A DNA stretch of 45,409 nucleotides from Prevotellaceae bacterium (GTDB taxonomy: Bacteria > Bacteroidota > Bacteroidia > Bacteroidales > UBA932). A program made the position numbers and the translations under genes. Positions 38,401 to 38,482 of the stretch are shown piece after piece (the first letter of the stretch is position 1; every line of letters begins with the position of its first letter). A model generated the notes under the pieces. It worked only from the letters and a program-made list of their open reading frames with translations, searched no databases and had not been told where the DNA came from. The stretch lies in assembly GCA_031290835.1 (NCBI GenBank), contig JAISLN010000302.1, forward strand, positions 1 through 45,409, written 5' to 3'.

Positions 38401-38482
38401 ACGCGCGCGCGCGCGCGTGTGTGTGTGTGTGTGTGTGTGTGTGTGTGTGTGTGTGTGTGTGTGTGTGTGTGTGTGTGTGTGT
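38401..38482. repeat. Compound dinucleotide microsatellite (CG)8(GT)33: 82 nt of uninterrupted alternating purine-pyrimidine
   Basis: Read directly from the sequence: a(cg)8 occupies 38402-38417 and merges into (gt)33 at 38417-38482. Confidence 0.98.

Follow-up and report, generated by a model that had tools for sequence, protein, structure and literature searches.

A compound CG/TG microsatellite upstream of the AraC-type regulator of a beta-mannan utilization locus in uncultured Bacteroidales: possible promoter rheostat or neutral product of a repeat-prone clade

What is a perfect, 82-nt run of CG and TG dinucleotides doing upstream of a bacterial transcription factor gene? The question is raised by a contig of a member of the Bacteroidales labelled Prevotellaceae bacterium (JAISLN010000302.1, GenBank assembly GCA_031290835.1), all 45,409 nt of which were analysed and are referred to as the window. 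The tract precedes the gene for an AraC-family regulator at the head of a polysaccharide utilization locus (PUL), and a preliminary description, made from the letters of the window, had proposed that slippage or Z-DNA formation in it could modulate the regulator and through it the whole PUL, with an assembly artefact or a chimeric join to vertebrate host DNA as the alternative. We suggest as the best explanation that the tract acts as a length-variable, supercoil-sensitive and graded “rheostat” of the AraC promoter, and we give this a probability of roughly 40%. A regulatory role is plausible, and a neutral repeat-proneness of the clade is about equally likely.

The tract occupies positions 38401-38482 and reads A(CG)8(TG)32T, with purines and pyrimidines alternating without a break; a recomputation of the alternating run returned exactly the coordinates and the 82 nt first reported. 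Tandem Repeats Finder divides it into (CG)8 (38402-38417) and (GT)33 (38417-38482), each with 100% matches, and as G38417 is common to both, the repeat proper measures 81 nt. On the minus strand, which is the sense strand of AraC, it reads (AC)33(GC)8. The CG and TG parts stand in one continuous phase of alternation, which bears out the initial view of an uninterrupted tract joining the two classic Z-forming repeats, and the window sequence contains no N letters. It is at once a perfect short-unit repeat of slippage length, as in the contingency loci built on simple sequence repeats (SSRs), and an alternating CG/TG-rich tract of the Z-DNA-prone kind (“flipons”), for which at least 12 bp are asked and 82 nt are present. 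The tract lies inside the 610-nt non-coding gap between the AraC start and the 3′ end of pdxA, 279-360 nt upstream of the AraC ATG (38122), a placement on which our annotation of open reading frames (ORFs) and Pfam domains agrees with the preliminary description.

The length of the tract is far beyond chance. In 2.13 Mb of control DNA from other Bacteroidota nothing comparable was found: none of 80 pdxA loci (1.34 Mb) contains a dinucleotide run of more than 6 units, and dinucleotide SSRs of at least 12 nt are absent from all 80 orthologous AraC loci of gut Bacteroides (0.79 Mb), which were the only AraC matches in a scan of metagenome contigs (human gut, 73-77% identity) and served as negative controls. 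Together with a survey in which SSRs and alternating purine/pyrimidine patterns are generally suppressed in prokaryotes (PMC4060949), this upholds the premise that long dinucleotide repeats are rare in bacteria.

The organism itself has no close relative among the GTDB species representatives (best pdxA match 60%), and exact look-ups of the window's AraC and PdxA gave no contigs of the same species. The nearest proteins, 75-92% identical, are found in JGI metagenomes and in metagenome-assembled genomes (MAGs) labelled “Prevotellaceae bacterium”, with other near relatives in SPIRE assemblies of the BioSamples SAMN10573993-96, which are lower-termite gut metagenomes (PMC7807685). Judging from these relatives, the window would belong to a clade of uncultured Bacteroidales related to termite-gut forms, with termites and not vertebrates as hosts; the idea of a vertebrate host is at odds with the source of the related contigs.

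A comparison of the locus with its relatives, as had been proposed, revealed an orthologous pure tract in a second species. Contig L081 (25.9 kb), from a different sample and an independent assembly, carries the closest relative of the window's AraC (P0004, 87% amino acid identity), and at the orthologous site, 139 nt upstream of the AraC ATG, it has (AC)34 on the AraC-sense strand (2417-2484), in the same orientation as in the window. In the window (CG)8 adjoins the GT run; L081 has (CG)5 set 24 nt away. A Logan assembly of the same run (L082) breaks inside the repeat, starting with (AC)12. Bacterial genes lie within 280 nt of the tract on both sides in both contigs. Since an orthologous (AC)34 and a homologous flank are present in an independent assembly, host contamination and a spurious tract are excluded, and on this comparison of sequences the tract is genuine, vertically inherited bacterial DNA. 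Of the artefact suspected at first, the part concerning host DNA or a spurious repeat therefore falls away with L081 and L082, whereas a mis-join on the pdxA side, weighed below, keeps a low probability.

The purity of the two tracts stands out against the divergence of the genes beside them. The AraC coding sequences of the window and L081 are 84% identical overall and 65% identical at four-fold degenerate sites, which gives a neutral distance of about 0.47 (Jukes-Cantor). At this distance, a stretch of 66 nt should have accumulated about 31 substitutions over both lineages, and none is observed in either tract. The absence of interruptions despite such a distance implies, on sequence grounds, that slippage turnover vastly exceeds point mutation, that selection maintains the purity, or both. 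That the repeat is flawless in two diverged species speaks for high slippage activity, from which a contingency or rheostat locus of the kind considered in the preliminary description could arise.

Other identities of the tract were considered and rejected. ORFs cross it in both the window and L081, giving (Thr-His)n or (Cys-Val)n, and were dismissed as coding because their N-terminal parts are unrelated and the frame after the tract is shifted by two indels between the species. Rfam returned only mir-3149 (27 bits, threshold 100) and sno_ZL1 (24 bits, threshold 64), both sub-threshold and both falling on the low-complexity tract, so that they are artefacts. A mobile element or shared repeat family was rejected on the dissimilarity, in any orientation, of the flanks of this tract and of a second one in the window, and an invertible promoter because neither tract is bracketed by convincing inverted repeats of about 15-30 bp; of the window ORFs scanned with Pfam, none encodes a recombinase.

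The promoters of Bacteroidetes follow a -33/-7 consensus of TTTG/TAnnTTTG. On the AraC side of the tract lies a conserved block, in which the window and L081 are 79-81% identical over 83-97 nt as opposed to 65% at the four-fold sites of AraC, a conservation above neutral sites with a binomial P of about 0.0015. No further copy of the block exists in the window or in 175 loci, and a metagenome scan for it gave 0 matches. The only promoter-like motif common to both species directly adjoins the tract: a TTG (38401-38399) abuts it and is followed, after a 22-nt spacer, by the -7-like box TAATTTTC (38376-38369), with TATTTTTT at the same place in L081. The shared form, TA(AT/TT)TTT(C/T), has one mismatch to TAnnTTTG, and the -33 element is imperfect. 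A scan for sigma-70-type promoters had shown no enrichment over shuffles and, being uninformative for Bacteroidota, was replaced by the scan for TAnnTTTG.

In the AraC sense, both species present the same order of tract, candidate promoter, GAATTTTACTA, hairpin and T-run. The hairpin is terminator-like, in the window the strongest such site of the region in a terminator scan, with a fold z of -3.7; at the same position in L081 it is weaker (z = -0.5). Its T-run in L081 is only ~38 nt from the AraC ATG, the window having an extra ~140 nt between the two. Because of this short distance, transcription of AraC in L081 almost certainly starts upstream of the hairpin, near the tract, which would make the hairpin part of a leader or an attenuator.

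A sequence of events can be proposed that would turn this arrangement into a promoter rheostat. High-rate replication slippage would keep the tract pure in a small clade of Bacteroidales, and the tract would act from the distal edge of a putatively promoter-proximal conserved block of ~100 nt, which it abuts. At moderate negative superhelicity, (CG)8 would nucleate a B-to-Z transition, which the in-phase (TG)32 would allow to spread, absorbing up to about 14 superhelical turns. Changes in unit number through slippage, combined with transcription-driven supercoiling, would then tune the adjacent AraC promoter in a graded rather than an on/off manner, and the recombinogenic tracts might double as breakpoints of genome rearrangement. 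In a B-Z zipper model that takes its free energies from textbooks (0.66 and 1.34 kcal/mol per dinucleotide, 5 kcal/mol per junction), the calculated onset of the transition in the compound tract is at a sigma of about -0.03 to -0.037, which is 0.005-0.008 earlier than in pure (TG)25-32, and the Z segment grows gradually with supercoiling; the 14 turns follow arithmetically from a full flip of 81 bp. As modelled, a tract abutting the promoter could serve as a graded supercoil buffer with a capacity set by the repeat number.

Several observations weigh against this proposal. An exact -7 box, TATCTTTG, is located upstream of SusC at about 37076-37083 on the minus strand, within a stretch of ~60 nt that is near-identical between the window and L081 (about position 3640 there); from its motif and conservation this region is probably the promoter of the PUL operon and plausibly the target of AraC. 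As the PUL is thus predicted to have its own conserved promoter downstream of AraC, the tract could reach it only via AraC dosage. Both tract and block are missing from the AraC orthologues at 80-83% identity (L088-L090), which keep the layout AraC-SusC-SusD-surface glycan-binding protein-GH26, from a 75% relative (L083) and from the 80 Bacteroides orthologues, whose PUL layout is the same. Since orthologues with this layout do without it, the tract is, on the comparison of loci, a young feature specific to this clade, and one that PUL regulation as such can dispense with. The two species that do possess it differ by one unit only (33 and 34 GT/AC, in single contigs and not populations), and their distances between tract and ATG are dissimilar (279 nt in the window, 139 nt in L081). 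For AraC there is no exact TAnnTTTG box in the window, the candidate having a mismatch and a long spacer; the tract does not form a -33/-7 spacer; and the strand preference of the hairpin is inconsistent between the two species. Finally, SSRs also occur beside housekeeping genes of the clade, as does the (AAAG)8 array of one relative (L093:1437-1468), which separates rpsO from a phosphoribosyltransferase gene, and this hints at a mutational propensity of a general kind.

This last point leads to the strongest competitor of the rheostat, one that we regard as a serious though tentative explanation: the tract would be a neutral by-product of an unusual mutational regime that lets (GT)n and other short repeats expand in intergenic DNA, for example because mismatch repair deals poorly with dinucleotide loops or because the replicase is prone to slippage. 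The tract at AraC would then be inherited by descent, would have no regulatory role and would matter only as a source of instability. Two long tracts stand 3.3 kb apart in the window in unrelated contexts, and the relatives have other repeats, among them the (AAAG)8 just mentioned, which is reduced to about 3 imperfect units at the orthologous site L091:11346-11375, as well as tandem arrays at contig ends (L084-87, L092, L095). The lack of the tract in AraC orthologues at 80-83% and in Bacteroides, and its variable distance from the ATG, fit here as well. On the other hand, the density of tandem repeats in the clade is only modestly raised above the background (17.5 vs 13.9 per 100 kb), both long tracts are found in the 5′ regions of genes rather than at random, and the tract at AraC has been kept at the same site, pure and at near-equal length, across a distance of about 0.47, next to a block under constraint.

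Repeats are moreover found upstream of AraC in two sister lineages, which also speaks against a purely neutral origin. In the third lineage (P0005, 87%; L084-L087), a tandem array of TTCTTAG/TTCTTAAC comes within about 5 nt of the AraC start codon, and the four contigs, which are independent assemblies from lower-termite guts, all end inside it (L084:1-75). That sister lineages have different repeats beside one and the same regulator would fit a convergent evolution of contingency, and would also fit a repeat-prone clade.

Arrays of a different type, heptamers of the form TTAGTGA/TATCAGC, directly follow the stop codon of sprA in L094 (9116-9146) and in the tail of L095. Their copy number differs between these two contigs, which are two assemblies of one sample, and similar triplets of TAGTGAT occur in two gut Bacteroides loci (L135, L145).

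The second perfect microsatellite of the window, (TG)25.5, did not feature in the preliminary description, although it is only 3.3 kb from the first. It is situated 321 nt after the stop codon of a Cys/Met-metabolism enzyme and precedes a tandem row of three paralogous lipoprotein genes, the first of them at a distance of 247 nt, with an exact -7 box, TACATTTG, at 41612 on the plus strand, 128 nt upstream of the repeat. Going by this motif, the tract may be within the 5′ leader of the lipoprotein genes. These genes have a lower G+C content than their neighbours, and among 5.8 billion proteins their family numbers only 31, every one of which belongs to this clade and most of which come from short contigs. 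The first gene has an in-frame (GGT)6 (42115-42133), encoding a run of Gly8 right after the lipobox Cys, possibly a length-variable linker. Fast-evolving families of surface lipoproteins such as this are a classical class of contingency target.

Another set of observations concerns the rearrangement of the region. The homology between the window and L081 ends exactly at the tract, beyond which the window has pdxA and L081 a divergent GH43-like gene and a reverse-transcriptase fragment; the latter (RVT_1, L081:1-792) is at the start of that contig, 1.6 kb from (AC)34. In all four relatives compared for pdxA (loci L091-L095; 86-92% identical, or within the 90% cluster of the window's pdxA), including the MAG that holds L081, ruvA and sprA follow within about 30 nt after pdxA. 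In the window, pdxA is without ruvA-sprA: homology stops about 30 nt past its stop codon, and the 220 nt between this point and the tract are non-coding and unique. The divergent pair of pdxA and the Cys/Met-lyase gene is itself kept in relatives. The upstream neighbour of AraC and the PUL is different in every relative examined, and the adjacency of pdxA, tract and AraC is unique to the window contig among the loci compared. From these comparisons the tract would appear to be a rearrangement breakpoint, or just possibly an assembler mis-join.

This raises the question whether recombination, rather than regulation, is what the tracts stand for. Dispersed identical (GT)n would provide portable homology, or hot spots favoured by Z-DNA or RecA, through which the segment with pdxA and the Cys/Met gene moved between the AraC-PUL and the lipoprotein cluster; regulation would be secondary, and the proposal is compatible with either a rheostat or neutrality. 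The end of the homology with L081 at the tract, the direct (TG)n tracts on both sides of the 3.26-kb segment, the loss of the neighbours ruvA-sprA that are present in 4 out of 4 relatives and the changing upstream neighbour of AraC all point in this direction. Nevertheless, synteny on the 3′ side of pdxA breaks about 30 nt after the stop codon, 220 nt away from the tract and not inside it, no relative with an intermediate arrangement was found, and a mis-join by the assembler would yield an identical pattern, so that as a primary explanation we hold recombination to be unlikely.

Such a mis-join would connect separate (GT)n loci, whether from one genome or from two that co-occur, and would be a one-sided artefact: the tract beside AraC would be real, but pdxA would not truly be adjacent to it, and the stated length would be unreliable. 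Short-read de Bruijn assemblers do become entangled at multi-copy repeats of low complexity, as the break of L082 inside the tract illustrates, and both the unique adjacency in the window and the end of the L081 homology at the tract would be explained. Against this, a 150-nt read or a large k-mer is long enough to span tracts of 51 and 81 nt; the unequal lengths of TG in one contig (51 vs 65-66 nt) do not look like a collapse of k-mers; the 3′ flank of pdxA diverges already 220 nt before the tract, which indicates a real rearrangement in any case; and for each of the three segments the nearest relatives belong to one clade and one series of samples. We therefore consider an artefact of this kind improbable.

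Least probable of all, to the point where we give it little weight, is a function in RNA, in which a transcribed, G-free (AC)33 segment of a leader or 3′-untranslated region, ending at the hairpin and T-run, would offer an unstructured C-rich platform to Rho or another RNA-binding protein, or would pair with the (UG)25 leader of the lipoprotein genes, such that read-through into AraC is attenuated: the terminator-like hairpin that closely follows the tract, read in the AraC sense, in each of the two species, the exact -7 box TATATTTG that precedes the tract of L081 by 148 nt on the strand of AraC, the co-directional pdxA of the window with a weak terminator only (a hairpin at 38658-38677 in the far-side flank) and the -7 box 128 nt upstream of the second tract, on the sense strand of the lipoprotein genes, would suit it, but on the window's minus strand no promoter-like box precedes the first tract, Rfam offers no family beyond the two artefactual matches, the hairpin is weak in L081, and the orientation relative to the downstream genes is opposite for the two tracts, so that one mechanism cannot serve both.

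A more far-reaching and, in our view, rather doubtful extension of the promoter rheostat is that the clade has domesticated eukaryote-like (GT)n/(CG)n as heritable, supercoil-sensitive Z-DNA switches and recombination substrates, both at the regulator and at the lipoproteins. The features of the window on which these considerations are based are collected in Table 1.

Table 1. Positions of the tracts, candidate elements and genes in the window; L081 is the contig of the sister species, and a dot marks features without a strand.
Feature	Coordinates	Strand	Basis and remarks
Beta-mannan-type PUL, ~37 kb	749..36870	-	Pfam; all genes there on the minus strand, downstream of AraC
AraC-family regulator	37229..38122	-	Pfam HTH_18 and HTH_AraC; head of the PUL
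Conserved block, AraC side of tract	38300..38400	-	alignment; blastn E=5e-14 against L081
Terminator-like hairpin and T-run, AraC sense	38320..38352	-	11 bp, 6 G-C, loop of 6
Candidate Bacteroidetes-type promoter	38369..38401	-	motif match only, common to L081
Compound microsatellite A(CG)8(TG)32T	38401..38482	.	sequence and Tandem Repeats Finder; orthologous (AC)34 at L081:2417-2484
Far-side tract flank, non-coding, 250 nt after pdxA stop	38483..38732	-	no homologue in any relative
pdxA/Cys-Met-lyase segment, 3.26 kb	38483..41739	.	bracketed by two (TG)n tracts in direct orientation
pdxA	38733..39797	-	Pfam
Cys/Met-metabolism pyridoxal phosphate enzyme	40216..41418	+	Pfam; divergent from pdxA
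Second perfect microsatellite (TG)25.5	41740..41790	.	Tandem Repeats Finder; same strand orientation as first tract
Three tandem paralogous lipoprotein genes	42037..44075	+	47-68% identical, lipobox Cys in each, about 205 amino acids
C11 (clostripain-family) peptidase gene	44072..45319		Pfam; follows lipoprotein genes

The PUL comprises two SusC/SusD pairs, GH26, two GH5, a GH2 beta-mannosidase-like enzyme, GH130, an epimerase-GH3 fusion, an MFS_2 transporter, a GH27-type alpha-galactosidase and esterases, and the AraC orthologues adjoin SusC/SusD/GH26 in all relatives. An AraC-type factor is known as a component of a beta-mannan PUL (PMC9860051). Some further peculiarities were seen within the PUL: the 1170-aa ORF at its distal end (749-4261) fuses an N-acylglucosamine/cellobiose 2-epimerase-like domain to GH3, which is an unusual combination; a GH5 gene includes a 42-nt tandem duplication with 83% identity (16731-16814); and a T-rich array of TTGT/TTAATT repeats (22812-22880) occupies the intergenic DNA upstream of the GH26 gene.

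A perfect CG/GT tract of 82 nt at the same place in two diverged species is a rare natural exception among prokaryotes, and its significance depends on which of the explanations applies. If the length of the tract, or its flipping between B and Z forms, tunes AraC, this would be the first control of a PUL based on an SSR or on DNA structure in the Bacteroidota, a second route to heterogeneity in glycan foraging besides invertible promoters, and a natural setting in bacteria in which the long-debated biological role of Z-DNA could be tested. Domestication of the repeats would add SSR-based rheostat or contingency control, along with tract-mediated gene shuffling, to a phylum for which only invertase-based phase variation has been known, and would mean that Z-DNA serves a selectable function in regulation in a natural bacterium. 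If the tracts are neutral, the clade would still be instructive as an example of a relaxed constraint on microsatellites, and of the way in which these become rearrangement breakpoints and cause systematic contig breaks or mis-joins in metagenome assemblies.

Among the known loci with promoter-associated SSRs are hifA/hifB of H. influenzae with (TA)n, hmw1A/hmw2A of the same species with 7-bp repeats, nadA of N. meningitidis with (TAAA)n upstream of the promoter, and vlhA of M. gallisepticum with (GAA)n; we know of no report of a GT or CG unit in this class. The window tract resembles such contingency loci in having a short unit, in being perfect and prone to slippage, and in its location in the non-coding DNA that precedes a gene. 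As in nadA, hmw and vlhA, it is placed upstream of the (candidate) core promoter and not between the hexamers, from which a graded effect would be expected, and the second tract precedes genes for surface lipoproteins, a typical class of target. It departs from these loci in its length, 33+8 units as compared with the usual 5-20, and in its target, which is the transcription factor of a glycan-utilization locus in a commensal of the Bacteroidales. SSR contingency loci have been reviewed in general (PMC11868660, PMC12721329), and phase variation in the Bacteroidales is known to be driven by invertases rather than by SSRs (PMC11868660). Like the invertible promoters of SusC/SusD-PULs (PMC11868660), a rheostat at AraC would give rise to heritable and reversible heterogeneity of glycan utilization in the Bacteroidales. 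In contrast to those promoters, there are no flanking inverted repeats and no nearby invertase, and slippage or DNA structure would take their place.

The tract also invites comparison with what has been learned of left-handed DNA, for which the energetics of the B-Z transition in TG and CG have been described (PMC8053131). As in flipons, the easiest Z-former, CG, is joined in phase to a long TG run upstream of a candidate promoter, and in L081 the tract lies between divergent genes, where transcription generates negative supercoils. The established examples are (CG)n/(TG)n placed upstream of promoters in plasmids of E. coli and natural (TG)n in eukaryotic promoters such as that of CSF1. The window tract differs from these in being a natural tract in a bacterial chromosome, where such patterns are normally selected against (PMC4060949), and Z-DNA is here a matter of calculation only. 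With the (CA/GT)n of eukaryotes it has in common the unit, the length range, the purity and the persistence at an orthologous site across species; unlike them, it has bacterial genes to either side, and this in each of two independent contigs. The tract is best classed with the promoter-proximal SSRs or the Z-DNA-prone elements, in a phylum whose phase variation is otherwise based on invertases (PMC11868660).

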